64,000 nucleotides of DNA, from positions 422,227 through 486,226 of the forward strand of contig CAVSJJ010000008.1 of the NCBI GenBank assembly GCA_963728395.1, in the 5' to 3' direction. Below, piece by piece: positions 3,585 through 37,330 of this stretch. Each line of letters starts with the position of its first letter. Position 1 is the first letter of the stretch. This DNA is from an uncultured Actinomycetota bacterium. GTDB lineage: Bacteria > Actinomycetota > Actinomycetes > Actinomycetales > Dermatophilaceae. The notes under the pieces were generated by a model. That model was not told the DNA's origin and made no database searches. It worked only from the letters and a program-made list of their open reading frames with translations. Made by a program: the position numbers and the translations under genes.

Positions 3585-4850
3585 ATGCGCCTGCCGAAGC
3601 TGACCGCCGCCTCGCGCCCCGCCGCCGAGGACCCCGAGCCGGCCTCCGCCCGCGCGACCGCACGTGCCTGGGAGCCCGACGACGACCACCGGCCGGACGC
3701 CTGGTCGGTTCCGCGAGGTGTCCGGACCGCGAGCGAGTGGTCCTGGCGCTTCATCGTCATCGCCGTGGCCCTGTATGGCGTGCTCTGGGTGCTCGCCTAT
3801 CTCTCCGAGGTCGTCGTGCCCGTCGTCGTCGCGATCCTCCTCACCGCCCTGCTGCGGCCGGTCTCGCAGTGGCTGTCCCGCTTCATGCCGAACGGCCTGG
3901 CGGCCGGGTTCACCGTCCTCGGGGGCCTCGGGCTCATCGGCGGGGTCCTCTCCGTCGTCGGCAGCCAGTTCTCCGCACAGTTCGGCGACATCCTCGACAA
4001 GACGACCCAGGGCATCGACGAGGTCCGCTCGTGGATCCGGTCGACCTTCCACGTCACCGACACCCAGCTCGGACAGTGGGTCGACGACATCCGCAACCAG
4101 ATCACGTCGAACAACACCAACATCGGCCAGACGGCCGCACAGGCCGGCGTGACCGCCACCCACGCGATCACCGGGATGGCCATCGCCCTGTTCACCCTCT
4201 TCTTCTTCCTCTACGAGGGCGAGCGGCTGTGGACCTGGGTGGTCCGGCTCTTCCCGCGGGCGACCCGGGAGAAGGTCCACTCCTCGGGGCTCATCGCCTG
4301 GGGCCAGCTGTCGGCCTTCACCCGGGCGACCGTCCTCGTCGCCGCGGTGGACGCGATCGTCATCGGCGTCGGTGCGGCGATCCTCCACGTGCCCTTCGCC
4401 TCGGGGATCGGGGTGCTCATCTTCTTCGGTGCGTTCGTGCCCATCATCGGGGCGTTCGTCTCCGGTTCGGTCGCCGTGCTGCTGGCGCTCGTCGCGTTCG
4501 GGCCGATCCAGGCGGCCATCATGCTCACGATCATCGTCGGCACGATGCAGCTCGAGAGCCACGTCCTCCAGCCGTTCCTGCTCGGCCGGGCCGTGCGGGT
4601 CCACCCGCTGTCGGTCATCCTCGCCATCGCGGCCGGGATCATCGTCGCCGGCATCATCGGCGCGCTCATCGCCGTCCCGACCGTCGCCGTCCTCAACGCC
4701 GTGGGACACCACCTGCTCGACGCCGACGCTGCGCCGGACGGTCCCGACGACGCGCTGTCCAGCGCCGAGGGACGCTCCGCCGGCGCGGCGACGGACGACG
4801 CCGATGACCTCGACGCGGCGGCGTGGGACGGCATACCGGGCCAGGCCTGA
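3585..4850 (+). CDS. AI-2E family transporter (PerM/UPF0118-type permease)
   Basis: 421-aa polytopic membrane protein with about 8 hydrophobic segments and a charged N-terminal extension. Overall pattern resembles AI-2E/UPF0118 permeases. Start codon uncertain. Confidence 0.75.
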   Translation: MRLPKLTAASRPAAEDPEPASARATARAWEPDDDHRPDAWSVPRGVRTASEWSWRFIVIAVALYGVLWVLAYLSEVVVPVVVAILLTALLRPVSQWLSRFMPNGLAAGFTVLGGLGLIGGVLSVVGSQFSAQFGDILDKTTQGIDEVRSWIRSTFHVTDTQLGQWVDDIRNQITSNNTNIGQTAAQAGVTATHAITGMAIALFTLFFFLYEGERLWTWVVRLFPRATREKVHSSGLIAWGQLSAFTRATVLVAAVDAIVIGVGAAILHVPFASGIGVLIFFGAFVPIIGAFVSGSVAVLLALVAFGPIQAAIMLTIIVGTMQLESHVLQPFLLGRAVRVHPLSVILAIAAGIIVAGIIGALIAVPTVAVLNAVGHHLLDADAAPDGPDDALSSAEGRSAGAATDDADDLDAAAWDGIPGQA

Positions 4851-5925: not shown

Positions 5926-6591
5926 TTACTGCGGATCCGCCTCGGTGTGTCGCCAAAGTGACGGTTGTGAATCTCTGAGGCGCCCGACGAGCGAGCGGCC
6001 GCCGAGGTCCTCCGACGTCAGCGCGAAGGAGAGATGGTCGCGCCAGCCCCCGTCGATGTGCAGCATCCGCAGCCGGGTCCCCTCGGGGCGGAACCCGAGC
6101 TTGCGGACGACGGCCAGCGATGCGGTGTTCTCCGGACGGATGTTGACCTCGAGCCGGTGCAGACCGAGGACGTCGAAGACATGGTCGCCGCACAGGGCCA
6201 GCGCCATCGGAGCGACCCCGCGCCCGGCGATGGCCCGGCTCACCCAGTACCCGGCGGTGCAGGAGCGGAAGGAGCCGAGGACGATGTTGCTCAGCGTGAT
6301 CTGCCCGACGATCCGGCCGTCGACCTCGATGACGAGCGGGAGCATCCGGCCCGCGGCGGCCTCGGTGTCGTAGTGACGGACCAGCTCGTCGAACGTGCGC
6401 GCTCCGCCCTCGTCGATCGGCGACGTCGCGTCCCACCGCTCGAGCCACGCGGCGTTGTACCGCCGGACCCACTGGTACTCCCGGGCATCCGAGACGACCA
6501 TCGGGCGCAGGACGAGCGGGTCACCGAGGCGAGCCACGCCGACGAGCCGGACCGGCCAGCCGACGGCCGGTGCGCCGCGGCGCCGGAACAT
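5926..6591 (-). CDS. rimJ: GNAT family N-acetyltransferase, RimJ/RimL-like
   Basis: 221 aa with a GNAT core (QITLSNIVLGSFRSCTAGYWV...GRGVAPMAL...HRLEVNIRPENTASLAVVRKLGFRPEG). The start overlaps the mogA stop (TGATG). Confidence 0.75.
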   Translation of the reverse strand: MFRRRGAPAVGWPVRLVGVARLGDPLVLRPMVVSDAREYQWVRRYNAAWLERWDATSPIDEGGARTFDELVRHYDTEAAAGRMLPLVIEVDGRIVGQITLSNIVLGSFRSCTAGYWVSRAIAGRGVAPMALALCGDHVFDVLGLHRLEVNIRPENTASLAVVRKLGFRPEGTRLRMLHIDGGWRDHLSFALTSEDLGGRSLVGRLRDSQPSLWRHTEADPQ

Positions 6592-7627: not shown

Positions 7628-8867
7628 GGGCACGATCCTGCCCCAGCAACGGGATACAGGTAAGGGGCATCCCCTCGTGCACCTCGGTGACATCCGGTGG
7701 CACGACGGCGAGGGCGGTGGCCTCGGCGAGCGCGCCGACCGCGTGCGAGGCTTGTCCGCCGAAGGGCCGCACCCGGACCGGGCCTCCGTCCTGGCTGGGC
7801 TCGACGACGACCCGGCTGAACTCCGCCTTGACCGGAACCGAGCGCCAGTCGACGCCGGCGACGGCCGAGAACCGGGGCGCGGCGTGCGGGTCGGCCCCGG
7901 CGAGCAGCCGCAGCGCGGGCAGGACGAACACGTGGAAGGAGACGAGGGAGGAGAGCGGGTTGCCGGGAAGGGTGATGATCGGCGTATGCCGCGGCCCGAC
8001 GAGGCCGAACCCCTGCGGCATGCCGGGGCGCATCGCCACCTTGACGAACCGGACTCCCCCGTCGGCGGTGAGCACCTCCTTGACGATGTCGTAGGCGCCC
8101 ATCGACACCCCGCCGGAGGTGAGGACGAGGTCGGGGTCGCCCGGCGGATCGAGGAGGAAGGCCCGCATCTCGTCGGCGTCGTCCCGCAGGTGGACGACGG
8201 TGGCGAGCTCGGCCCCGGCGGCCGCAACGAGTGCGGCGAGCATGATCCCGTTGGAGTTGACGATCTGGCCGTGCCCGAGCTCGCTGCCCGGCGCGACGAG
8301 CTCGTCACCCGTCGAGACGACGGCGACCCGGGGGCGACGGACGACGTCGAGCTCGCCGAGGTTGGCGGACGCCGCGAGGGACAGGTGCCCCGGGGAGAGG
8401 ACGGTCCCGGCCCGCAGGACGATGTCGCCGGAGCGGACGTCCTCGCCACGGAAGCGGACATGCCGCCCCACGGCAGGCGCCAGCCGGAGCGCGGCGGCCT
8501 CGGTGCCGCCGTCGCTCTCCTCGACGGGGACGACCGCGTCCGCCCCCTCCGGCAGCGGGGCGCCGGTCATGATCCGCATCGTCCGGCCCGGGACGAGGAC
8601 GCGGCTGCGCGTGTCGCCGGCGGCGATGTCGCCGTCGACCGGCAGGCGGACGGGCGAGTCCGGGCCGGCGGCGGCGACGTCGGCCGCGCGCACGGCATAC
8701 CCGTCCATGGCCGAGTTGGTGAAGCCGGGCAGGTCGGTGCGCGAGGCGACGTCGGCCGCGAGGGCGCGGCCGAGGGCGCCAGCCACGCCGACCCGCTCGC
8801 TCGGCAGCGGGGTGAGGGCGGCGAGGATCCCCGCGAGGTGGTCCGCGACCGGAACCAGCTCAGGCAT
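7617..8867 (-). CDS. moeA: MoeA-family molybdopterin molybdotransferase / gephyrin-like protein (Glp candidate)
   Basis: 416 aa with [38 protein letters not shown] and [10 protein letters not shown]. Synteny matches Rv0994 moeA1. Confidence 0.85.
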
Positions 8868-10274: not shown

Positions 10275-10844
10275 ATGGCGAGTCCGAGCAAACGGGAGGT
10301 TCGCGCGGCGCTGCGGGAGCGGCGACGCGCCATCGCCGCCGGTCGCGACGTGCCGACCGACTCGGCCCTGCTCGCCGAGGTCGGGGTCGACCTCACCCTC
10401 GAGCTCGGGCTCGACGAGGGCGACACCGTGACGCTCTACGAGTCGTGGGCCGGCGAGCCGCCGACCGGCGCCCTCGTCGCGGCCCTGCTCGCTCGGGGCA
10501 TCCGGGTCCTCGTGCCGATCACCCTGCCCGACCTCGACCTCGACTGGTGCGACGTCGAGGACCCCGACCGCACGCCGCTCGGTGCGAGGGCGATCGCCGA
10601 GGCCGCGCTCGTCCTCGCACCGGGCCTCGCCGTGGACGCCCTCGGGACCCGGCTCGGCCAGGGCGGGGGGTGCTACGACCGGGCACTCCCCCGGCGGCGG
10701 GACGGCATACCGGCTCTCGTCCTGCTCCACCCCGGAGAGCTTGGCGGGTCCGAGGACCCGCTCCTGCCCCTCGCCGAGCACGACCAGCCGGTCGACGGCG
10801 TGCTCACCGCCGAGGGCCGCACCTGGCTGCACCCGCGCGGCTGA
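10275..10844 (+). CDS. 5-formyltetrahydrofolate cyclo-ligase
   Basis: 189 aa starting KREVRAALRERRRAI, with LGQGGGCYDRAL near the C-terminus. Position matches Rv0992c next to the UGPase gene. Confidence 0.75.
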   Translation: MASPSKREVRAALRERRRAIAAGRDVPTDSALLAEVGVDLTLELGLDEGDTVTLYESWAGEPPTGALVAALLARGIRVLVPITLPDLDLDWCDVEDPDRTPLGARAIAEAALVLAPGLAVDALGTRLGQGGGCYDRALPRRRDGIPALVLLHPGELGGSEDPLLPLAEHDQPVDGVLTAEGRTWLHPRG

Positions 10845-26276: not shown

Positions 26277-26348
26277 GCCCTCGTAGCTCAGGGGAAGAGC
26301 ACCGCTCTCCTAAAGCGGGTGTCGCAGGTTCGAATCCTGCCGGGGGCA
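26277..26348 (+). tRNA. tRNA-Arg(CCT): tRNA-Arg (anticodon CCT), no encoded CCA
   Basis: GCCCTCGTAGCTCAGGGGAAGAGCACCGCTCTCCTAAAGCGGGTGTCGCAGGTTCGAATCCTGCCGGGGGCA. Acceptor stem GCCCTCG/CGGGGGC, anticodon loop CTCCTAA, canonical T-arm. Confidence 0.9.
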
Positions 26349-26350
26349 CT
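26307..26350 (+). repeat. attL direct repeat (3' part of tRNA-Arg)
   Basis: Identical 44-mer at 39483-39526. Confidence 0.9.
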
Positions 26351-27831: not shown

Positions 27832-28233
27832 CTACCTGTGGACACGCTCGTGGTCCTCCACCGCGGCCGCGATCAGTCGGAGCTGACGACGGGCGTACCG
27901 TCGCTGAGCGGCTTCGAGGTCTTGTCCGTGCGCGTAGAGCGTCATCAGGCCCGGCCAGCCGGAGGCGGATCCGGCGAGCAGGCGGAGGAGGGTGCGCTGG
28001 GCGGCGTCGGGCAGCCGGAGGTGGCGCAGCATCGCCTTGGTGGTGGCGCGGGAGTTGCCGCCCGCCGTGCCGTTGGCCAGCGTGCGCATCGGTTCGGCCG
28101 CTCCGTTGATGCGGGCCACGTCGAGGCGCGCGGCCAGGACCTCGAGGGCGGGGATCAGCCGCACCTGTCGCAGCGCTCGGGGCGTCACGCGGAGTTGCCG
28201 GATTGCCCACTCCTGGAACGGCTCTGGGCTCAT
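27832..28233 (-). CDS. hypothetical protein (133 aa), element-borne
   Basis: ORF co-oriented with int/xis, with a 4-nt overlap to the upstream ORF. No recognisable motifs. Confidence 0.4.
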   Translation of the reverse strand: MSPEPFQEWAIRQLRVTPRALRQVRLIPALEVLAARLDVARINGAAEPMRTLANGTAGGNSRATTKAMLRHLRLPDAAQRTLLRLLAGSASGWPGLMTLYAHGQDLEAAQRRYARRQLRLIAAAVEDHERVHR

Positions 28234-28673
28234 GGCTGTGGCCTCTCGTCGAGGCCGACGAACCGCACGATCGCGTCAGCAGGGACTGCGGTCAAGCCGT
28301 GGAGCGAGTCGGCGTGGGCCGCCCGAGCGCTCCCCCGGTGCCCGCGGCAGGCTGCCCGCACCAGTGCTCGCCGCAGCTCGGCCGGCGCCATCGCGCGGGC
28401 CTCTGGCTCGTGCTGCATGAGCCAGCCCATGGCGGCGAGCAGCTCGACCGTGGCGTGCTCGACCGTCACCTCCACCGGGCGCCGGGAGCCGGCCGGCGTC
28501 ACGTACCGACGCCGGCGCGTGCACACGGCGTCCCGCACCGCGATCCACAACGCATCCCTCGCCGGAGAGGCGACCGCCAACGTCGAGCACCTGGCCAACA
28601 CCTGCGCCACACCGACGCCCAGCCTGTCCACACCGTGCGCTCCCTGCCTCGAGCCGCCCATCGTGCCCTCCAT
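28230..28673 (-). CDS. hypothetical protein (147 aa), element-borne
   Basis: ORF co-oriented and overlapping the next ORF by 4 nt. No recognisable motifs. Confidence 0.4.
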   Translation of the reverse strand: MEGTMGGSRQGAHGVDRLGVGVAQVLARCSTLAVASPARDALWIAVRDAVCTRRRRYVTPAGSRRPVEVTVEHATVELLAAMGWLMQHEPEARAMAPAELRRALVRAACRGHRGSARAAHADSLHGLTAVPADAIVRFVGLDERPQP

Positions 28674-29006
28674 CGAGTGAGTCCCTTCACCCCCTAAAGC
28701 GAAATCGGGGTTCTACGTGCTCACTTCTGGACAAGTCGCATCGGGCGACCTCCGCGAGGACGCCAGATTGGGCCCCGCAGGTTCGCCGGACCGCAGCGGC
28801 AGCGGCGCGGGCATCCCCATCCGTGCCGACGATCCGATCCCCAGCCGGGCGACGGTCAGGATGGTCGACCGAGAGGTCACCGGATGGCTACCCCAGGTCG
28901 GCCGAGAGGGGCGTTGTCTCACTCTCATGCTTGATATGTGGGTGATCCGCGTGGTCACCGGCGCTCCTACGTTGGGGTTGTCCGTTCTCCTCGAGGAGGC
29001 ACCCTG

Positions 29007-30104
29007 ATGTCGAGTCCTGCGCCCTGTCTGATTCCGTCTGCTGGGGCGGTGCCGGATCGGTTGGGTGATCCGCTGCTGGATGACTTCTTGGAGTTCCTGG
29101 CCGTTCGGTGCCGGCCGAACTCGGTGTTGGCGGCCAGGTTCGACCTGAAGGTGTTCTTCGAGGTGGTGGCCAAGCCGGTCGAGCAGGTGGGCGCGGCGGA
29201 CGTGCTGGGGTTCATCACCGCGCAGCGCACCGGCGCCCGGTGCCTGCCCGAGCCCGGTGTGCGGGTGTTGCCGACGGACGCTGTGGGTGTCACGTCGCGC
29301 ACGATCCGTCGCCGGCTGTCCACGGTCAGCGGGTTGTACGCGTTCTTGGCGGTGCGTGGGGACGTGCCGGCCAACCCGGTCCCGAGGGGGTTGCCGACCC
29401 GCCGGGAGCTGGGCCGGCCCGGCCAGGGTGTGCCGTTGGTGCGGGCCCCGCGCCGGACGTTGCCGCGGATCCTGACCCCGGCCGAGGTCGACGCGTTGGC
29501 CGGTGCGTTGCGCACCCACCGGGACCGGGCGATGGTCGCCGCGATGGTGCTGGGTGGGCTGCGCCGCTGCGAGGTCCTGGGCCTTCGCCTGGGTGATGTG
29601 CGGGCGGGTGAGCGGCGGTTGTTCATCAACGAGGGCAAGGGCGGTGCGCAGCGGCTGGTGCCGATCTCGCCGCGGTTCTTCGAGCACCTTGCGGCCTACC
29701 TGGACGTGGAGCGACCTGCCGACGCCGATACCGACGCGGTGTTCCTGGTCCTGAAACGTCCCCGCCGGGGCCGGCCACTGACGGCGTACGGGGTCGACCA
29801 GGTGATGGACGGCGCCCGGGCCCGGGCCGGGCTGGCCCACGCCACCTGCCATCAGCTGCGGCACACCTGCCTAACCCGGCTTCGGGAGGCCGGGATGCCG
29901 TTGGAGGCGGTGCAAGCCCAGGCCGTGCACGCCAGCATCGAGTCGACCAGGATCTACTTGCACCTGGCCGATGACTGGCTGGCCTCTCAGTACCGTCGCG
30001 CCGCCGAGGTCATCGACGCCCAGGTCTTCGCCGGCACCCCCACCGGGAGCCCACCGACCGCGACGGATCGGGCGCCGATCCCAGGCTTTCGGAGGCTGCG
30101 GTGA
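29007..30104 (+). CDS. tyrosine recombinase (XerC/D-like), first of pair
   Basis: RBS gaggagg. N-terminal SAM-like LDDFLEFLAVRCRPNSVLAARFDLKVFF. Catalytic LGGLRRCEVLGLRLGDV...HQLRHTCLTRLREAGMPLEAVQAQAVHASIESTRIYLH. Confidence 0.85.
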   Translation: MSSPAPCLIPSAGAVPDRLGDPLLDDFLEFLAVRCRPNSVLAARFDLKVFFEVVAKPVEQVGAADVLGFITAQRTGARCLPEPGVRVLPTDAVGVTSRTIRRRLSTVSGLYAFLAVRGDVPANPVPRGLPTRRELGRPGQGVPLVRAPRRTLPRILTPAEVDALAGALRTHRDRAMVAAMVLGGLRRCEVLGLRLGDVRAGERRLFINEGKGGAQRLVPISPRFFEHLAAYLDVERPADADTDAVFLVLKRPRRGRPLTAYGVDQVMDGARARAGLAHATCHQLRHTCLTRLREAGMPLEAVQAQAVHASIESTRIYLHLADDWLASQYRRAAEVIDAQVFAGTPTGSPPTATDRAPIPGFRRLR

Positions 30105-31348
30105 GCGGGCCGCTGCTGCTGCCCACCTGGGCCCAGCTCGACACCACCCACCCGCAGGTGGTGGCAACGATGCGCGCCTACCTGGACCAGGTCGCGTGCG
30201 TGCTGCGCCCGGGCAGCGTCGGTGGCGCCGACCTCGCGCTGCGCTCGTTGGCGGCCTACCTGGCCGACCAACATCCTGACCTGCACCGGGTCCGTGACGT
30301 CGGGCGCGTCCACATCGAAGGGTTCAAGCCGTGGCTGGCGGCCCGCCCGGGACAGAACCGCACCCGGCTGACCCCGGCCACCATCGCGCACCGCCTCGGC
30401 ACGCTACGGGTGTTCTTCCTGCGGATCGACGAATGGGGTTGGGACGACGCACCGCCGCGGGTGCCGATGTTCCTCGGTGACGTCCCCAAGCAGCACCACG
30501 CCCTGCCCAAGGCCTTGGACGACGCCACCGCCGCGAAGCTGCTGCGCGCCGCCCAGGCCGACAAGCGGATGCTCGTCGGGGTCACCGTGGAGTTCCTCCT
30601 ACGCACCGGGCTACGGGTCGGGGAGTACACGGCCCTGACCGCCGACGCCGTGGTCCTGATCGGTGACACCCACTGGCTGCACGTACCGGTCGGCAAGCTC
30701 CACGAAGACCGCTACCTGCCACTGCACCCGCGCATCGTGGAGCTGATCGACACCTACCGGGCCGCGCACGTCCCGCCCGGGCACCCGCTGCTGCTCCCAC
30801 GCGAGAACGGCAAACCGATGGACCGGCACGGTGTCACCCGCTACATCAACAAGGCCGGCGCCGCGGCCGGGCTGGGCCACATCCACCCCCACCAGCTGCG
30901 GCACACCCTGGCCACCCAGGCCATCAACCGCGGCATGAGCATCGAGGCGATCGCCGCGATGCTGGGCCACAAGTCGCTGGACATGACCTTGGTGTACGCC
31001 AAGATGACCAACCGCACCGTGGCCGAGGAGTACTTCACCGTCGCCGCCAAGGTCGACGCCCTGTACGCCTCACCCTCGCAGCTACCCGCCGACGACCTCG
31101 GACCCAACATGGCCCGCCTGAACCGTGAGCACCACCGCATGCTCGGCAACGGCTACTGCGCCCGACCCAAGGTCATGGACTGCCAGTTCGAGAACATCTG
31201 CGAGTCGTGCACGTTCTTCCAAACCAGCATCGAGTTCCGACCCACCCTCCTCGCCCAACGCCAAGACGCCTGCAACAAGGGCCAAGTCAGACGAGCCGAG
31301 ATCTTCGACCAGCTCATCACCGGCCTCGAGAACACCGAAGCCTCTTGA
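30101..31348 (+). CDS. tyrosine recombinase, second of pair, with Cys-rich C-terminal extension
   Basis: The GTG overlaps the previous stop (GTGA). Catalytic TGLRVGEYTAL...HQLRHTLATQAINRGMSIEAIAAMLGHKSLDMTLVYAK. C-terminal NGYCARPKVMDCQFENICESCTFFQT. Confidence 0.85.
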   Translation: MSGPLLLPTWAQLDTTHPQVVATMRAYLDQVACVLRPGSVGGADLALRSLAAYLADQHPDLHRVRDVGRVHIEGFKPWLAARPGQNRTRLTPATIAHRLGTLRVFFLRIDEWGWDDAPPRVPMFLGDVPKQHHALPKALDDATAAKLLRAAQADKRMLVGVTVEFLLRTGLRVGEYTALTADAVVLIGDTHWLHVPVGKLHEDRYLPLHPRIVELIDTYRAAHVPPGHPLLLPRENGKPMDRHGVTRYINKAGAAAGLGHIHPHQLRHTLATQAINRGMSIEAIAAMLGHKSLDMTLVYAKMTNRTVAEEYFTVAAKVDALYASPSQLPADDLGPNMARLNREHHRMLGNGYCARPKVMDCQFENICESCTFFQTSIEFRPTLLAQRQDACNKGQVRRAEIFDQLITGLENTEAS

Positions 31349-31408
31349 CACCGATCACCCACATAATGCCGAATTGAGGACGTCTCGCGACCCCGCGTGT
31401 TGAGGGGG

Positions 31409-31789
31409 CTAGGAGGCAACGAACCCCGGTATTGCGACCCCCACGATGACCCCGATGGAACATGCGACATACATCGCGGCGGCGGCGCTGAACACTCTTC
31501 GCTCGCGGGACGAGCGCGCCGACGAACGCGCTCGGGCCAAACCTCGGGATGCGCCGTTCGCGAGGAAGATCAGCGTTAGCAGGACGATGCCCAACGTGAC
31601 CGGCACGCCGTACACGGCCCAGGCGTCTACGCGGGAGTACCACAGGTCGACATCGAAGAGCCCGGCAATGCTCAGCATCAGAGCACCCAGCAGGCCAGCC
31701 CCGCAAGCAGCAGCAGTGGCGCCAAAGAGCCGTTTCTCGTCGTTCTTGGATGAAGGTGCCCGACTGGTCTCACCAAGAACACGCCGCAT
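31409..31789 (-). CDS. small membrane protein (about 126 aa), hypothetical
   Basis: An internal ATG (MRRVLGETS...) gives three hydrophobic segments (ACGAGLLGALMLSIAGLF, VYGVPVTLGIVLLTLIFL, AAAAMYVACSIGVIVGVAIPGFV). Lower-GC region. Confidence 0.4.
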   Translation of the reverse strand: MRRVLGETSRAPSSKNDEKRLFGATAAACGAGLLGALMLSIAGLFDVDLWYSRVDAWAVYGVPVTLGIVLLTLIFLANGASRGLARARSSARSSRERRVFSAAAAMYVACSIGVIVGVAIPGFVAS

Positions 31790-31983
31790 TGAGGTCAACA
31801 GATCCCCGCCCAATTGCGTGTTGGGACCACTACCGCTCACCTGCGCTCCCGTCCCATGACTAGGAAGATCTGGCCTCCCAACCCAGGGAGGGCGTCGCTC
31901 AGTATCCCTCGGACACACTCTGCTCCGCTGGCATGACGCCAGACTGTGTGCTCGGTCACGCCGCAGATCGTGCCGATGAGCGG

Positions 31984-32316
31984 TCACCCAACGATGTTGT
32001 CAACGTTGACGTAGTAGACCCGGTCAAGGCCCTCGGCGATTTCCTCGTCAGACGAATACCGACGCCGGTCCAGGAGGAGCGGCTCGGCCTGTTCGATATC
32101 GACGTCGTTGGGATCGGCATCGTCCCAGGCCCCCACTCGGATCCTGATCTCACCCTGCTGGGCAAGGTCGAACAGGGCCGCGCCAAGCGCGTCCAGCCCG
32201 GCCGTCCCCAGCGGAATCAGCCCAGCGCGACGGCAGCTATCCGTGATCTCCCATAGTGGGATGTCGCCCTCAAGTCCCAAGGCGAGGATCTCCCGGCGAA
32301 GTGCGTCGTGACTCAC
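31984..32316 (-). CDS. hypothetical protein (110 aa) in cassette array
   Basis: ATG ORF with an acidic, globular-looking sequence. The stop is followed directly by junction motif gccgcagatcgtgccgatgag (reverse-complement orientation). Confidence 0.5.
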   Translation of the reverse strand: MSHDALRREILALGLEGDIPLWEITDSCRRAGLIPLGTAGLDALGAALFDLAQQGEIRIRVGAWDDADPNDVDIEQAEPLLLDRRRYSSDEEIAEGLDRVYYVNVDNIVG

Positions 32317-32374
32317 GCCGGGAGCGTCTCACGGAACGCCATCTGCCGCCGATCGTGCCGATGAGCGCGGCCGA

Positions 32375-32656
32375 TCACTCAAGTCCCTTCGGAGTATGGC
32401 GACCTGTCGTGTGGGACGTGCGCCGCCCCCACCCCACCGTCCAGTCGACCGCATAGAAGCCTAGGCAGAGGATCAAGGTGCCAAACCAAAGCCATGGGAC
32501 CCAATGAGCGGGTCCCTTCGCCTGAAGGAACAAGCCCAGCACGATGGAGAAGATCAAGACGAACTCGCCGGGCTCTTCTCCCTTGACGTGCAGTACCCAC
32601 CCAAGTCCCACCATCAACAACAGGGCAGCGACCGCAGCACCGCTGATGTCGTCCAT
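32375..32656 (-). CDS. small membrane protein (93 aa) in cassette array
   Basis: Three hydrophobic segments. The stop is followed directly by the junction motif. Confidence 0.5.
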   Translation of the reverse strand: MDDISGAAVAALLLMVGLGWVLHVKGEEPGEFVLIFSIVLGLFLQAKGPAHWVPWLWFGTLILCLGFYAVDWTVGWGRRTSHTTGRHTPKGLE

Positions 32657-32826
32657 ACTCAGCAGGCTAACCGTCGGCTCACTGCAGGGCGGTCAGTCAC
32701 GGGTCTGTGTGAGCACGGCGACGTCCGCTCTTGCCGCTGTCGCGGCCGTACGCTCTTGCCGCTGTCGTGGGAAGGGAGCCCGCCGCTCAGGCAGATCGAG
32801 GTCAGGCCCCGCGCTAGGGTCCAACC

Positions 32827-33129
32827 ATGCCGTCTGATGACCTCGGGGTCCTGTCCCTTGAGATGCGATCACGGGCCCGAGTCGACCCGAACGGCGAGGT
32901 GTCTTGGCACGTTCGTGATGCCCCGGCAGTACTTGGGCAACTTGCCGATGCCGGTCGCGTCGTGCTCGGCTTGGACCTACGCGATTACAAGGACGATGGG
33001 ACCTTCGTGGAGCTTGCCTGGAGCGCCTATGACGGCTCGGACCCGGTTGAGGCCCGCGACTCGGCATCCCGAGCGCTCGCGCGCCCCGAAATTCCCTGCG
33101 ACTGGGTCCTCATCACCTGGCGACCCTGA
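32827..33129 (+). CDS. hypothetical protein (100 aa) in cassette array
   Basis: ATG lies 6 nt after tagggt (a leaderless-type -10). Globular-looking sequence. Junction motif immediately downstream. Confidence 0.5.
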   Translation: MPSDDLGVLSLEMRSRARVDPNGEVSWHVRDAPAVLGQLADAGRVVLGLDLRDYKDDGTFVELAWSAYDGSDPVEARDSASRALARPEIPCDWVLITWRP

Positions 33130-33174
33130 GGCGTCCACTCTTGCCGCCGATCGTGCCGATGAGTGGGCGCCCGC

Positions 33175-33483
33175 TCACCTATCGGCGACGGTATCCAGCA
33201 GGCGCGCAACGTGCTCGGTGGCGGCTGCGGCATCAGGCGTATCCAGCCGCGTGTCGAGTGCGTCGCCCTCGACTGTGAACGGTGCCGCCCCTCCGGGCCA
33301 CGTGTCGACCTGGACCTCAACTCCGGCGCGCTGGACCCAAAAGACATGGTCGTCGTCAGAGGGGTAAGTGCCGACCATGCGGCTTACCGTGACATCCGGG
33401 AAGCGTGCCCGCACCGAGCGGAGGATGTCGTCTAGCGGACCGCCGGTGGTGTCATCTGGTCCCCATGCCCTGCTGCCTGCCAT
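33175..33483 (-). CDS. hypothetical protein (102 aa) in cassette array
   Basis: Internal ATG (MAGSRAWGPDD...) of the 253-aa ORF. Acidic and globular-looking. The stop abuts the junction motif. Confidence 0.45.
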   Translation of the reverse strand: MAGSRAWGPDDTTGGPLDDILRSVRARFPDVTVSRMVGTYPSDDDHVFWVQRAGVEVQVDTWPGGAAPFTVEGDALDTRLDTPDAAAATEHVARLLDTVADR

Positions 33484-33576
33484 GGGACCAGTGTCACGCA
33501 ATGCACTCTCTTGCCGCGGGTCGTGCTCTGCGCGTTGTCGTCGCGGCTGGGGATGGGCTGCTCTAGTGTCCGTGGT

Positions 33577-33918
33577 GTGGCCGATGACCTCGACGCGCTG
33601 GCCGGAGCTTGGCACGCCGCAGCCGCGGATCTTGGGCTGAGAGTCCGTGCCCCATTCAGACTCTCGGAGCGCATTGAGTGCATCGCCTGGGTGGCCGACG
33701 TCGGATCGCCGCAAGGCACCGTCGTCGCCGCTCTTCACTCTTCCAATGAGGCCGTCCGCGCGGCCGCTGAGTCTCAATCGATGTACTGCTCCGAGGTGGA
33801 TGAAGCGGCGTACAGCAAGTACGACCGAGAACTCTTCACAGAGACACTGAGCGACTGGGGGTGGTTCGGAGACGCCTCGGCGTTCCCGGACTGGTACACC
33901 GGTCCCGAAAGCGGATGA
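33577..33918 (+). CDS. hypothetical protein (about 113 aa) in cassette array
   Basis: GTG lies 7 nt after tagtgt (an ATG alternative is at 33553). C-terminal FTETLSDWGWFGDASAFPDWY. Confidence 0.4.
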   Translation: MADDLDALAGAWHAAAADLGLRVRAPFRLSERIECIAWVADVGSPQGTVVAALHSSNEAVRAAAESQSMYCSEVDEAAYSKYDRELFTETLSDWGWFGDASAFPDWYTGPESG

Positions 33919-33964
33919 CGCTACAACCGCACTCATCTGCCGCTGTCGGCGCTAGCGTCCGACC

Positions 33965-34303
33965 ATGCCGCTGGCGGGCGACTCATCTGAGGTGATCTGG
34001 AAGCTTCCTGGGTTGTCGATGGCCGATGACGAAGGCGACAGCCTTCGCCCGCGCCGGGGCGACAGGGTCCACCCAGACTTCGACGGAGTAGTTGCCTGTC
34101 AGGACGTCGACGCTTCGTCCCTCATCACCAATGGACAGGTGGAACCCGTGATCGCCAACGATCAACTCAGAGGCCCGGCGCCCTGCCCCCTGAGGGTCAC
34201 CTCCACCCCGCCCGTCACCCCGCTCCGACCCTCGAGCCCGGCACACCGACCAACGCCCCTCACCGACCCCCGGCCTGCAACGTCCCCGGGCGCCCCCGCC
34301 TGA
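33965..34303 (+). CDS. possible small ORF (112 aa), doubtful
   Basis: ATG lies 6 nt after tagcgt, in the same promoter-like context as 32827, but the C-terminal half is Pro-rich junk-like. A competing minus-strand TTG ORF (about 33983-34165, LIVGDHGFHLSIGDEGRSVDVL...) is equally plausible. Confidence 0.2.
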   Translation: MPLAGDSSEVIWKLPGLSMADDEGDSLRPRRGDRVHPDFDGVVACQDVDASSLITNGQVEPVIANDQLRGPAPCPLRVTSTPPVTPLRPSSPAHRPTPLTDPRPATSPGAPA

Positions 34304-34399
34304 TCTCCTCGCACCCCAACCCCATTGCGGCACACCTCTGGCACTGAAGCTGCCGGGGCCCGATGGTGCCCCCCTCGTCTCCGTCTTCCGGGTGTGACG

Positions 34400-37330
34400 A
34401 TGTCCATCCGGCGGATGAGCCTCGGGGCCGGCTACCGGTATCTGATGTCGACCGTCGCGCGGGGGGACGTGGACGCGCCGGCGCGGTCGCCGATGGTCGG
34501 GTACTACTCCGGCGAGGGCACTCCGCCGGGGGTCTTCCTCGGCCGCGGGCTGGCCGGCCTGGCCGATGGACGAGGCGTCGTGGCCGGCTCCATCGTGAGA
34601 CCCGAGCAGCTCGAGCGAATGCTGCTGCGCCTTGCCGACCCCGTCACCGGACAGCCGCTGGGGCGCGGGCCAAGTCAGCACCGCGAGACGATCGGACCCG
34701 ACGGGACGACCCGGAAACGGCCGCAGCCGGTGGCCGGTTTCGACCTGACCTTCTCCGTCCCGAAGAGCGTCTCGGTGGCCTGGGCGCTGGCCGATCCCGC
34801 CACGCGCCAGGCCATCCACGCGGCTCACCAGCGGGCGGTCATGTTCGTCCTGGCGTATGCCGAGGACACCGTCTTCGCGACCCGCACCGGTGCCGGTGGG
34901 TCCGTCCGCGAGCCGGTCCTCGGGGTGGTTGCGGCGGCCTTCGACCACTGGGACTCCCGGGCCGGCGACCCGCAGCTGCATACCCATCTGGTGGTCCTCA
35001 ACCGCGCCCAGGCGGCCGGCGACGGGCGCTGGCGGACGCTCGACTCGCGCGCCGTCTTCGGGGCCACGGTGACGTTGTCGGAGCTGTACAACGGGGTGCT
35101 TGCCGACCAGCTGACCGCGGCCCTGGGGTGGGGTTGGGTGCCCGTGACGCGGGCCCACTCACCGGAGCGGAAGTGGGAGGTGGGCGGGGTCCCGGCCGCA
35201 CTGCGGGCGGAGTTCTCCCAGCGCTCGGGGGCGATCGAGGCCGCCAGCGAGGCGCTGATCGGGCACGCTCGCGACCGGCTGGGGCGCGAGCCCACGGTCC
35301 GCGAGGTCATCGCGCTGCGCCAGCAGGCCACCCTCGACACCCGTCCCGCCAAGACGAAACACTCGCTGGCCGACCTCGTCGAGGACTGGGCCAACAGAGC
35401 CCGCCCGCACCTCGAGGGGGACCCGGCGGAGTGGGTGCGCTCCCTAGGCGGCGCAGACCGTCGGCCGGCGCGATCGAGCGGCGACCTCGACCCCGATCTC
35501 GTCGACGCAGCGGCCCACCACGTCCTCGGCAAGGTCGCCGAGCACCGTTCGACCTTCACCGCGCAGAACGCCCTTGCGGAGACCTTCCGTGCCCTCCAGG
35601 CGATGGTGTTCACCACGCCCGATGAGCGGGTCAGGGCCGCCGAGAGGATCGCGCATCGCGCCCTGGGCCAGGCCGTGCGGCTGACCGAGGGCCCCGACCG
35701 CAGGTACACGACCCACGAGCTTCTGAATGCCGAGGAGCGCCTCCTCGACTACGCCCACCGGGATCGGCCTGGCCCGCGGGTCCGCCCGATCCCCCGCACC
35801 GTCGACCACAGTCCGGTGCCCGTGGCCGGCGCCACGGTCAGCCTCGAGCAGGCCGACGCCGTCGAGGCGATCGCCGGCTCCGGGCGGGCCCTCGACCTCC
35901 TGGTCGGCCCGGCCGGAACCGGCAAGTCCACGACCATGGCCGCACTGCGCGAGGTGTGGGAGGCGGCATACGGGGTGGGCAGCGTGGTTGGGCTCGCACC
36001 CTCCGCCTCCGCGGCCGACGTCCTCGCGGAGGCGGTCGGCATACGCACCGAGAACACCGCGAAGTGGCTCACCGAGCAGAGCCGCCAGGCCGAGCGCGAG
36101 GCAGAACTGGACGAGTTCCGGGCGAAGCTGCTGCGGGCCAGCCCGTCGCTCGCGACCAGGCGCCTCCTGCATGCCGCGTGGTCGCTGTCGGCCGAGATCG
36201 ACCGGTGGCAGCCCCGGCCCGGCCAGCTCGTCATCGTCGACGAGGCCTCCCTGGCCGGCACCCTCGACCTCGCTAGGCTCACCGCCCTCGCCATCGACGC
36301 CGGGGCCAAGGTCCTCCTCGTCGGCGATCCGCACCAGCTCTCCCCCGTCCCCGCCGGCGGCGCCTTCCGGCTCCTCATCGCCGACCGCGCCGAGACCACC
36401 CCCGAGGACCCGGCCCCCGAGCTGACCCGGTCCCACCGGTTCAGCGACCCCTGGGAATCCACCGCCACCCGGCTGCTGCGCGACGGCCACCCGGTCGCCG
36501 TCGACGTCTACCTCGAGAAGGGCCGGGTCGTCGCCGCGCCCCGCGACCCCAGCCTCGACCTGCTCCACGCCGCCTGGGCAGACGACATCCGGCGCGGCCT
36601 TGCCTCGCTCATGGTTGCCACCGACCAGTCCACCGTCACCGACCTCAACGCCCGCGCCCACCGGGACCGCGTCCGCGCCGGAGTGGTCACCTTCCCCACC
36701 CGCTGCGCCCGGATCCTCGGCGACCAGACGCACGCCGGGGTCGGGGACCACATCATCACCCGGAAGAACCAGCGACGGCTCGCCTCCAGCGACGGCGGCT
36801 GGGTCAAGAACGGCGACCGCTGGACCGTCACCGCCGTCGGCGGCGACGGCTCCTTGACCGTCCGCAGCCTGGGTCGCACCGGTCGGGTGGGGCGCTCTCT
36901 GACGCTGCCGAGCGAGTACGTCGACCGGCACGTCCAGCTCGGGTATGCCGTCACCGCCCACCGCGCCCAGGGCACCACCGTCGATACGACCCATGCGTAC
37001 GTGTCCGACTCGACCACCCGCGAGGCGCTCTACGTCATGGCCACCCGAGGGCGGCACGCGAACCGGCTCTACGTCGACACCGACGACCACCTCGCCGTCA
37101 CCGACACCGTCGAGGAGGACCCGACCGTGCGCGGGCGCGAGGTCCTCCGGCACGCCATCACGACCAGCGCGACGGACATCAGCGCGACCCAGACGGCTCG
37201 CCAGGAGGACCCGGTGCCGACGTTTGTGCCCCCGCCCACGCCCACGCCCGGCATCAGGCGGCCCGAGTGGTCGCCGATCCCATGGTCCTCACCCGGCCGC
37301 GGACTCGACGGCCCCAGCCTCGGTCGCTGA
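34400..37330 (+). CDS. MobF-family relaxase (TrwC/TraA-type relaxase fused to RecD-like helicase)
   Basis: MSLGAGYRYLM...VGYYSGEG supplies the catalytic Tyr region. The His triad is HWDSRAGDPQLHTHLVVLN. Helicase motifs LLVGPAGTGKSTTM, LVIVDEASLAG, LLVGDPHQLSPV, GYAVTAHRAQGTTVD. Confidence 0.9.
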   Translation: MSIRRMSLGAGYRYLMSTVARGDVDAPARSPMVGYYSGEGTPPGVFLGRGLAGLADGRGVVAGSIVRPEQLERMLLRLADPVTGQPLGRGPSQHRETIGPDGTTRKRPQPVAGFDLTFSVPKSVSVAWALADPATRQAIHAAHQRAVMFVLAYAEDTVFATRTGAGGSVREPVLGVVAAAFDHWDSRAGDPQLHTHLVVLNRAQAAGDGRWRTLDSRAVFGATVTLSELYNGVLADQLTAALGWGWVPVTRAHSPERKWEVGGVPAALRAEFSQRSGAIEAASEALIGHARDRLGREPTVREVIALRQQATLDTRPAKTKHSLADLVEDWANRARPHLEGDPAEWVRSLGGADRRPARSSGDLDPDLVDAAAHHVLGKVAEHRSTFTAQNALAETFRALQAMVFTTPDERVRAAERIAHRALGQAVRLTEGPDRRYTTHELLNAEERLLDYAHRDRPGPRVRPIPRTVDHSPVPVAGATVSLEQADAVEAIAGSGRALDLLVGPAGTGKSTTMAALREVWEAAYGVGSVVGLAPSASAADVLAEAVGIRTENTAKWLTEQSRQAEREAELDEFRAKLLRASPSLATRRLLHAAWSLSAEIDRWQPRPGQLVIVDEASLAGTLDLARLTALAIDAGAKVLLVGDPHQLSPVPAGGAFRLLIADRAETTPEDPAPELTRSHRFSDPWESTATRLLRDGHPVAVDVYLEKGRVVAAPRDPSLDLLHAAWADDIRRGLASLMVATDQSTVTDLNARAHRDRVRAGVVTFPTRCARILGDQTHAGVGDHIITRKNQRRLASSDGGWVKNGDRWTVTAVGGDGSLTVRSLGRTGRVGRSLTLPSEYVDRHVQLGYAVTAHRAQGTTVDTTHAYVSDSTTREALYVMATRGRHANRLYVDTDDHLAVTDTVEEDPTVRGREVLRHAITTSATDISATQTARQEDPVPTFVPPPTPTPGIRRPEWSPIPWSSPGRGLDGPSLGR

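Follow-up and report, generated by a model that had tools for sequence, protein, structure and literature searches.

Integrons are the textbook bacterial means of stockpiling and reshuffling single genes. Complete integrons have been reported as absent from Actinobacteria (PMC4889954). Another described system, the dif modules of Acinetobacter, is made up of modules bounded by pdif (XerC/XerD) sites (PMC6449649, PMC13141974). The locus described here lies in a stretch of 64,000 nt, referred to as the window, from an uncultured bacterium of the Dermatophilaceae (Actinomycetota; assembly GCA_963728395.1, contig CAVSJJ010000008.1, positions 422,227 to 486,226). It occupies window positions 31367-34303 within a tRNA-Arg integrative mobilisable island. 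Judging from the sequence and from related loci, it is probably an array of head-to-tail one-gene cassettes, joined by tyrosine-recombinase-type sites of the same polarity and shuffled in an integron-like manner. Alignments with the related loci show that the units pass between arrays and between genomes as blocks, with the exchange points inside a 6-bp centre. No published description of this system was found in literature searches.

The array is bordered by a pair of recombinase genes at one end and by a TrwC-type relaxase gene (34400-37330) at the other. Its GC content was 65.4%, compared to about 74% in the flanks, and it contains seven open reading frames (ORFs; S1 to S7) of 93-127 aa, on mixed strands and with codon-position G+C of the coding type. 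Two of them encode predicted membrane proteins and five encode acidic proteins, in agreement with an earlier description made by a model from the letters alone (the sequence-only reading). The same reading reported a recurring motif in a long and a short form. The long form, GCCGC(C/A)GATCGTGCCGATGAG, was found at 31960, 32345 and 33143, in all three cases on the plus strand, where 0.02 copies per window would be expected by chance. A search of the 3.8-Mb genome with up to one mismatch gave no long-form copies beyond these three. Each of them is placed near the stop codon of a minus-strand ORF (31984, 32375, 33175), although with a gap of 3-11 nt and not directly abutting it as had been claimed. 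The short form was found at 32731 and 32756 (as a 25-nt tandem), 33513 and 33938, each time 5' of a plus-strand ORF. The short pattern as written, with its N positions, was not more frequent than expected by chance; it was taken as real because the copies align with each other and because copies occur in related genomes.

Both forms belong to one family, with (C/A)TC(T/A)-TGCCGC common to all aligned copies. The long form can be written as TGCCGC-CGATCG-TGCCGA-TGAGCG, i.e., two centres 12 nt apart followed by a right arm, and the short form consists of a left arm and a centre only. In total about 11 centres were recognized in the window, all on the plus strand, bounding seven one-gene units. 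The site has loosely inverted arms of about 6-11 bp flanking an invariant asymmetric 6-bp centre, TGCCG(A/C), and comprises about 18-28 bp. Its consensus is approximately ACGTCCGCTCA-TGCCGA-TGAGCGGACGT, which is approached by longer forms. S2 homologues of Phycicoccus duodecadis and of two metagenome contigs have a fuller motif, CGCTCA-TGCCGA-TGAGCG in the orientation of the window, 3 nt after their stop codons. By its letters, this layout is that of a tyrosine-recombinase core site, and the copies in the window are partial versions of it.

Two comparison sets were used, a DNA search of 60 relatives and an all-against-all comparison of 28 array loci. In the following, genomes and contigs are given as G and C numbers, G000 being the genome of the window. 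Homology to the window in the 60 relatives was found as cassette-sized pieces. The S1 cassette was found in three contexts; it was 99% identical in G001:C6 and 96% identical, in truncated form, in G000:C9, with homology extending from 31367 to 31964. The S3 cassette (32356-32737) was 90% identical in G006:C2, which belongs to another genus, from centre to centre only and with unrelated flanks. The S2 family was present in four further arrays, with a site 3 nt after the stop codon, and the block S4-S5-S6 was present in a Logan contig with the same bounding sites. When 13 shared cassettes were aligned base by base (75-99% identity, at least 90% in most), the limits of homology were placed at TGCCGC or TGCCGA in most cases, and the sequences beyond the bounding centres were unrelated; segments with 93-99% identity began and ended exactly at the centre. 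Since the limits lie inside the centre, a cassette owns a right arm at its start and a left arm at its end. Segments of 150-1500 nt that were shared among the loci had 234 ends in all, of which 19% were placed within 5 nt of a site, compared to 0.55% of random positions, and 28.6% within 12 nt, compared to 1.1%.

The order of cassettes was found to change among loci. Three cassettes arranged as A-B-C in G001:C5 were found as C-B-A in G002:C3, on the same strand, and two adjoining cassettes of G001:C5 were found in separate arrays in G005. The orientation relative to the site polarity was nevertheless kept in all 18 scorable shared cassettes. Two related islands, in G002:C1 and G005:C4, share the island backbone of the window (an integrase with 81-86% identity, Xis and two ORFs) and carry other cassettes, among them HicAB, a large ORF that reads like a nucleotide-binding protein, and a membrane protein. 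What distinguishes the two islands is a 2-kb block of two cassettes between two TGCCGA centres. The proposal of a fixed-orientation repeat that bounds cargo ORFs and of cassette-wise accretion, made in the sequence-only reading, is thus borne out by the site polarity and by exchange at the centres; indeed, it is precisely at the motif that the cassettes of related islands differ.

Sites were counted by a strand-blind rule, which required the centre and at least 9 of 12 arm positions, and reversed sequences served as controls. Applied to 21 loci, this rule gave 106 sites, compared to 13 in the controls, and a looser rule gave 167 compared to 32, which corresponds to an excess of about 5-8 times. 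Within loci the strands of the sites were divided 102 to 4 overall, 8 to 0 in the window and 14 to 0 in a 16-kb metagenome stretch (L040). The uniform polarity of sites, together with mixed orientation of genes, argues against a role as promoter, operator or terminator. The 23-nt unit was limited to the genus of the window when up to two mismatches were allowed; sister genomes had 3-19 copies, clustered and with one polarity per cluster. A strict 18-nt site gave 46 hits in 36 of 201 genomes of the family (6 control hits) and, at the level of the class, 50 hits in 42 of 401 genomes (13 control hits). Only array density or the strict 18-nt pattern were informative for such a census. Pieces of 10-12 nt such as TGCCGATGAG were discarded for this purpose, being equally common in coding DNA and in controls. 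The motif was also considered as a genome-wide repeat and rejected as such, since in the genome of the window it occurs only at the array locus and in one remnant (C9:2690-2937). The remnant (L016) is a decayed second piece of the system: it has a row of four centres and then the S1 cassette up to its nucleotide 164, where an IS21-type element (IstA/IstB) interrupts it.

The motif could alternatively be an intergenic palindrome similar to repetitive extragenic palindromes (REP) or to terminators, which mobile elements favour as a landing pad, with cassettes swapped by homologous recombination over these short repeats, as might follow conjugation. In its fullest form, CGCTCATGCCGATGAGCG, it is perfectly palindromic, able to form a hairpin and often placed 3 nt after a stop codon; the tandem units of 23-25 nt resemble a minisatellite, IS110-like and ISL3 elements are also found at or next to the sites, and a dedicated recombinase linked to the arrays was not found. 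However, the centres have uniform polarity whatever the strand of the genes, which would not be expected of a symmetric hairpin or terminator, and orientation is kept in 18 of 18 cassettes while their order is permuted. Most sites in the arrays are half sites in which a hairpin is impossible; a scan revealed nothing terminator-like at the motif, and no Rfam match was obtained in 28000-35000. Moreover, the identity across the joints is often just the 6-bp centre and a few bases. RecA-dependent exchange needs longer identity than this, and the joints are thus too short for it. We consider the palindrome explanation improbable. A related idea, that the arms are hairpins kept by compensatory changes, was suggested by the variant palindromes CTGTCA/TGACAG and CGACTC/GAGTCG, and it was overruled by the test with shuffled partners that is described below.

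The features of the array, read as cassettes between sites, are listed in Table 1. S7 is the last unit before the relaxase gene and the least certain of the ORFs, its coding status being uncertain, and its start codon is overlapped by the second centre of site G.

Table 1. Cassettes, sites and inserted element of the array, in window coordinates.
Feature	Position	Strand	Description
Site 0	28921-28930	+	left half ACTCTCA-TGC; right half split off by the inserted recombinase element
Mobile element	28931-31366	+	2.4 kb; inverted ends TTGATATGTGGGTGATC, GATCACCCACATAA; inserted in site 0
Cassette 1	31367-31958		starts with centre TGCCGA (31367-31372) and arm ATTGAGGACGT; S1 31409-31792, minus, 127 aa, predicted membrane protein
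Site A	31959-31987	+	long form cGCCGC-AGATCG-TGCCGA (centre 31971-31976), then arm TGAGCGGTCAC
Cassette 2	31971-32343		S2 31984-32316, minus, 110 aa, acidic
Site B	32344-32372	+	long form TGCCGC (32344-32349), CGATCG, TGCCGA (32356-32361), TGAGCGCGGCC
Cassette 3	32356-32731		S3 32375-32656, minus, 93 aa, predicted membrane protein
Sites C and D	32732-32762	+	TGCCGC at 32732-32737 and 32757-32762; 25-nt 'empty' unit TGCCGCTGTCGCGGCCGTACGCTCT between
Cassette 4	32757-33141		box TAGGGT 32815-32820; S4 32827-33129, plus, 100 aa, acidic
Site E	33142-33170	+	long form TGCCGC (33142-33147), CGATCG, TGCCGA (33154-33159), TGAGTGGGCGC
Cassette 5	33154-33511		S5 33175-33483, minus, 102 aa, acidic
Site F	33512-33517	+	centre TGCCGC; left arm CTCTCT
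Cassette 6	33512-33937		box TAGTGT 33564-33569; S6 33577-33918, plus, 113 aa, acidic
Site G	33938-33971	+	centre TGCCGC (33938-33943), 22-nt promoter-like unit TGTCGGCGCTAGCGTCCGACCA, second centre TGCCGC (33966-33971)
S7	33965-34303	+	112 aa, C-terminal half proline-rich; last unit before the TrwC-type relaxase gene

Some of the units contain no gene. The empty unit between sites C and D occurs in tandem, in 7-8 copies, in G005:C8. There (L013 5290-5475; G005:C8:236286-236470) the 23-nt unit TGCCGCTGTCGCGGCCGTACGCT stands 7-8 times in perfect tandem, with no cargo. Such tandem units of 23-25 nt are evidently consecutive sites with overlapping arms. The promoter-like unit of site G was also found in G002, G005 and G000:C9, sometimes between two centres. 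The TAGNGT boxes which had been described at three plus-strand ORFs are present, in the context GCGCTAG(G/C)GTCC(A/G)ACCATG at 32811 and 33949 and as CTCTAGTGTCC at 33560. A longer box unit, TGCCGCTGTCGGCGCTAGCGTCCGACCA, had seven copies in two sister genomes and none in controls. A scan for consensus sigma-70 promoters gave no match, and none coincides with the motif. From these boxes, some units may carry their own leaderless promoter. In S4 and S7 the start codon arises from the junction of arm and centre (A|TGCCG); this was rejected as a general feature, with 15, 16 and 20 of 81 ORFs in the three frames and hence no excess.

The cassette genes are real genes: ratios of nonsynonymous to synonymous substitution rates (dN/dS) of 0.16-0.26 show purifying selection on S2 and S3, and the AlphaFold model of S2 reached a predicted local distance difference test score (pLDDT) of 91. 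Three helices were predicted in each of S1 and S3, and the isoelectric points (pI) of S2 and S4-S7 were 4.2-4.9. None of the seven proteins matched Pfam or NCBIfam models, immunity families included. Among 5.8 billion protein clusters, 12 relatives of S2 and only two homologues of S6 were found, and one of the S6 homologues is encoded inside another array of the same sites. A structure search with the S2 model gave weak winged-helix (PadR/LmrR-like) matches, with template modelling (TM) scores of about 0.5 and E values of at least 0.1, and a sequence search of PDB with S4 and S6 gave no significant relatives among solved structures. No function for the cargo proteins was obtained from the Pfam, NCBIfam and PDB sequence searches and the one structure search made with S2. 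Sister arrays carry a mixed cargo of HicAB, membrane proteins, ORFans and enzymes, and also a large ORF which resembles a nucleotide-binding protein when its sequence is read by eye. In the HicAB cassette of G002:C1 (L015 ~6100-6260) the HicA-like gene has an in-frame TGA after ...AVFKTP, and this toxin half may be a pseudogene.

The sequence-only reading had named orphan immunity genes or small effectors as one candidate for the array. These would belong to a polymorphic-toxin system, and the motif would be left from the ends of displaced toxin genes. Small acidic proteins with such pI values, small membrane proteins, mixed gene strands and low GC are what such an array could look like. This suggestion was not upheld, and we give it very little credence. 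The absence of matches among the seven proteins covers immunity families as well, S4 and S6 had no sequence similarity to solved structures, and the model of S2 had only the weak winged-helix matches. Neither a toxin gene nor a toxin fragment was seen nearby among the ORFs of the window, and the motif is not in one protein frame across its copies, according to our own reading of the ORF translations. In addition, the cargo of the sister arrays, with HicAB, the large ORF and enzymes, is heterogeneous.

The two recombinase genes at the border of the array (28938-30104 and 30101-31348) encode translationally coupled Xer-like tyrosine recombinases. From the sequence of its ends and flanks, the pair is a separate mobile element in the first site of the array and not a fixed platform. 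The inverted ends comprise 13-17 bp, and when the flanks 28921-28930 and 31370-31383 are joined they restore the first array site as ACTCTCA-TGCCGA-ATTGAGGACGT, the arm starting with ATTGAGG. The idea of a recombinase-serviced platform therefore stands in part: cassettes are exchanged at a recombinase-type site, but the pair itself is an insertion. Relatives of the element with 55-95% identity were found in Fodinibacter, Terrabacter, Knoellia, Pedococcus, Intrasporangium, Serinicoccus, Tessaracoccus, Luteococcus, Acidothermaceae, Jatrophihabitantaceae and others. In 24 of 27 distinct flank pairs the insertion splits ...CA-TGC | CG(A/C)-TGAGCG..., and insertions at TGC|CG(A/C) span several actinobacterial families, with Fodinibacter, Terrabacter, Pedococcus, Serinicoccus, Tessaracoccus, Luteococcus, Acidothermaceae and others. 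At least one tyrosine-recombinase system thus does use the centre as its crossover point. Joined to each other, the element's ends would give CACCCACATAA-TGCTTG-ATATGTGGGTG, again in an 11-6-11 layout; according to our own reading of the ends, the centre has TGC in common with the target.

The centre variant TGCTTG was seen in one place besides the left junction of the two-recombinase element. In G005:C4 (L024 ~4040-4100) the stretch CA-TGCTTGA-GTCGGATG stands just before the first TGCCGA site of the island, perhaps as a scar left when a copy of the element was excised. Another kind of element was also seen at the sites: an IS110-family-like element starts with CACTGCGCAGACTCTTCC right after ...GCGGCCGTACG(C/T)T of the right arm, in three contexts (L019 ~6340-6375 in G001:C6, L023 ~10360-10390 in G005:C1 and L020 ~8470-8500 in G005:C5). 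The cassette site seems to be its target, in the way that attC sites of integrons are the target of IS1111-attC elements. A second pair or trio of recombinases in the genome (C7:61.8-64.8 kb) has other ends, lies inside an insertion sequence and was set aside as unrelated to the motif.

In the mechanism we propose, a cassette would be excised as a circle by recombination between two adjacent centres and would re-enter at any other centre, like integron cassettes, and the recombining enzyme would act in trans. The sole candidate with direct evidence of using the crossover is the Xer-like pair or its RIT-type relatives (RIT, recombinase in trio). That they move the cassettes is possible, though we consider it less likely than not. 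A chromosomal recombinase is about equally likely and is plausible because arrays exist without the Xer-like pair. Tentatively, the 2.4-kb element and its RIT-type relatives could be viewed as a self-mobile 'integrase module', which services the sites it inserts into by excising, inserting and shuffling cassettes at the TGCCG(A/C) centre. If this doubtful view is true, actinobacteria have independently evolved a functional equivalent of the integron, in which the recombinase is a transposable unit and not a gene of the platform.

Several observations weigh against the reading of the array as integron-like cassettes at recombinase sites. Firstly, genome-wide outside arrays, the site rule gave 240 sites compared to 230 in controls; there being no excess, lone sites cannot be called reliably. 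Secondly, the arms are degenerate and their inverted symmetry was not above that of shuffled partners. Arm complementarity was 4.4 of 9 positions in the target sites of the element, compared to 4.3 for shuffled partners, and in the arrays the mean was not above shuffled either, with only a few near-perfect pairs exceeding it. Recognition of the arms by a protein is therefore putative. Thirdly, the pairs of shared cassettes are not fully independent, as the same cassette families recur. Finally, no recombinase was consistently linked to the arrays: around those of G001:C5 and G001:C6 no PF00589 gene was found within more than 100 kb, and strict intact sites were present in 2 of 14 family genomes with the two-recombinase element and in 34 of 187 without it, i.e., there was no enrichment. 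An association by co-occurrence of element and sites across the 201 family genomes was accordingly rejected.

Many arrays adjoin island integrases of the same broad family (27-86% identical) and others do not. This bears on a further explanation, in which the units are decayed mini-islands, stacked by tRNA-Arg or related island integrases through tandem accretion in the manner of cis-mobilizable elements (CIMEs), and the motif is a degenerate secondary attachment site. The many integrases beside arrays speak for it, as does the fact that arrays start directly after the conserved int-xis-orf-orf backbone, and the tRNA-derived attachment core holds ATCCTGCCGG, which is faintly like ATC-TGCCGC. 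Apart from this, the 43-nt attachment repeat does not resemble the motif, the polarity of the sites relative to the integrase gene varies among loci, and large arrays were found far from any tyrosine recombinase. Furthermore, each unit is one gene, 0.24-2.5 kb in size, and identical units are found beside very different integrases. Stacked mini-islands are therefore, in our view, quite unlikely. The attachment repeat of the island itself (window 26320-26349 and 39500-39525) contains GAATCCTGCCGG, with a faint likeness to the site variant GGATC-TGCCGC that is perhaps a coincidence.

As a cassette array at short recombinase-type sites, the locus with its relatives offers a tractable system for asking how cassette systems arise, a defined site for mining a large pool of uncharacterised small proteins, and a candidate site-specific recombinase pair with a short, well-defined target.

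Among known systems, the dispersed palindromes known from REP and their associated tyrosine transposases (REP/RAYT) differ clearly. REP occur as tens to hundreds of dispersed intergenic copies per genome, usually hairpins and in both orientations, whereas in the genome of the window the motif is confined to the island and one remnant. Tandem recombinases of the Tn554 and RIT type (PMC3414803) resemble the 2.4-kb element only, and not the array, in having adjacent overlapping tyrosine-recombinase genes, compact size and site-specific insertion. In the sister genome G002, the repeats at the ends of a RIT element contain TTATGCCGA, sharing ATGCCGA with the array site. This three-recombinase element lies in an ISL3-type transposase gene beside the array (L015 ~4250-4470, 1050-1150; G002:C1), and its end motifs read (G/T)TTATGCCGA. 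Unlike Tn554 and RIT elements, the element of the window has two genes and not three, no TnpC, inverted ends of 13-17 bp, and as target a defined site family that also bounds cassettes.

Closer to the array are the dif modules of Acinetobacter. The pdif sites of about 28 bp likewise have arms around a 6-bp centre, and they bound small accessory modules (toxin-antitoxin pairs and small ORFs) which shuffle between replicons (PMC6449649, PMC13141974). A dedicated class of mobile elements, the IS1202 family, inserts at pdif (PMC10132070); it differs from the present element, which encodes tyrosine recombinases and not a DDE transposase. Differences were found in the sites as well. The pdif sites mimic the host dif and alternate in orientation, whereas all array sites are direct repeats, and the arrays are placed in chromosomal islands and not on Rep_3 plasmids. 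Mimicry of the host dif was rejected here, as the motif is unlike the candidate dif TTCGCCGATAA-TCGACA-TTATGTCATTA (G000:C3:458216-458243). This was the only dif-like sequence found in the genome and is probably the chromosomal dimer-resolution site.

The system nearest in logic is the integron, together with attC-site clusters that have no integron-integrase (CALINs; PMC4889954). In protein the likeness is low: no IntI, which is a tyrosine recombinase with an extra domain of its own, was found, the Xer-like pair scoring 62.3 and 32.4 bits with TIGR02249 (cut-off 265) and 34.6 and 22.2 bits with NF011946 (cut-off 435). Scores were better on the XerC, XerD and XerA models, still below their cut-offs. 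The site is also different, with about 18-28 bp and a TGCCG(A/C) centre, while attC is a folded, imperfectly palindromic site of 57-141 nt with R''-L''/L'-R' boxes and a GTTRRRY core, which was absent from the motif copies read. The crossover is in the middle of the site, so that one arm is left at each cassette end, and the strand of genes within cassettes is mixed. On the other hand, both systems have head-to-tail arrays of mostly single-gene cassettes, mostly of unknown function, with sites in one orientation and exchange of cassettes at a breakpoint inside a short conserved core; same-orientation cassettes exchanged as units at the site core, as required of an integron, are what the array shows. 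Some arrays have no nearby recombinase, as in CALINs, and mobile elements aim at the sites, as do IS1111-attC elements and group IIC introns in integrons. The array works like an integron or CALIN, yet it has neither of the parts by which these are defined, IntI and attC. The locus and its relatives, which belong to actinobacteria of soil and wastewater (Dermatophilaceae/Intrasporangiaceae and families close to them), represent the logic of the integron built from different parts, namely a simple site with a fixed 6-bp crossover, ORFan cargo, mobilisable islands and a mobile recombinase pair aimed at the same site.

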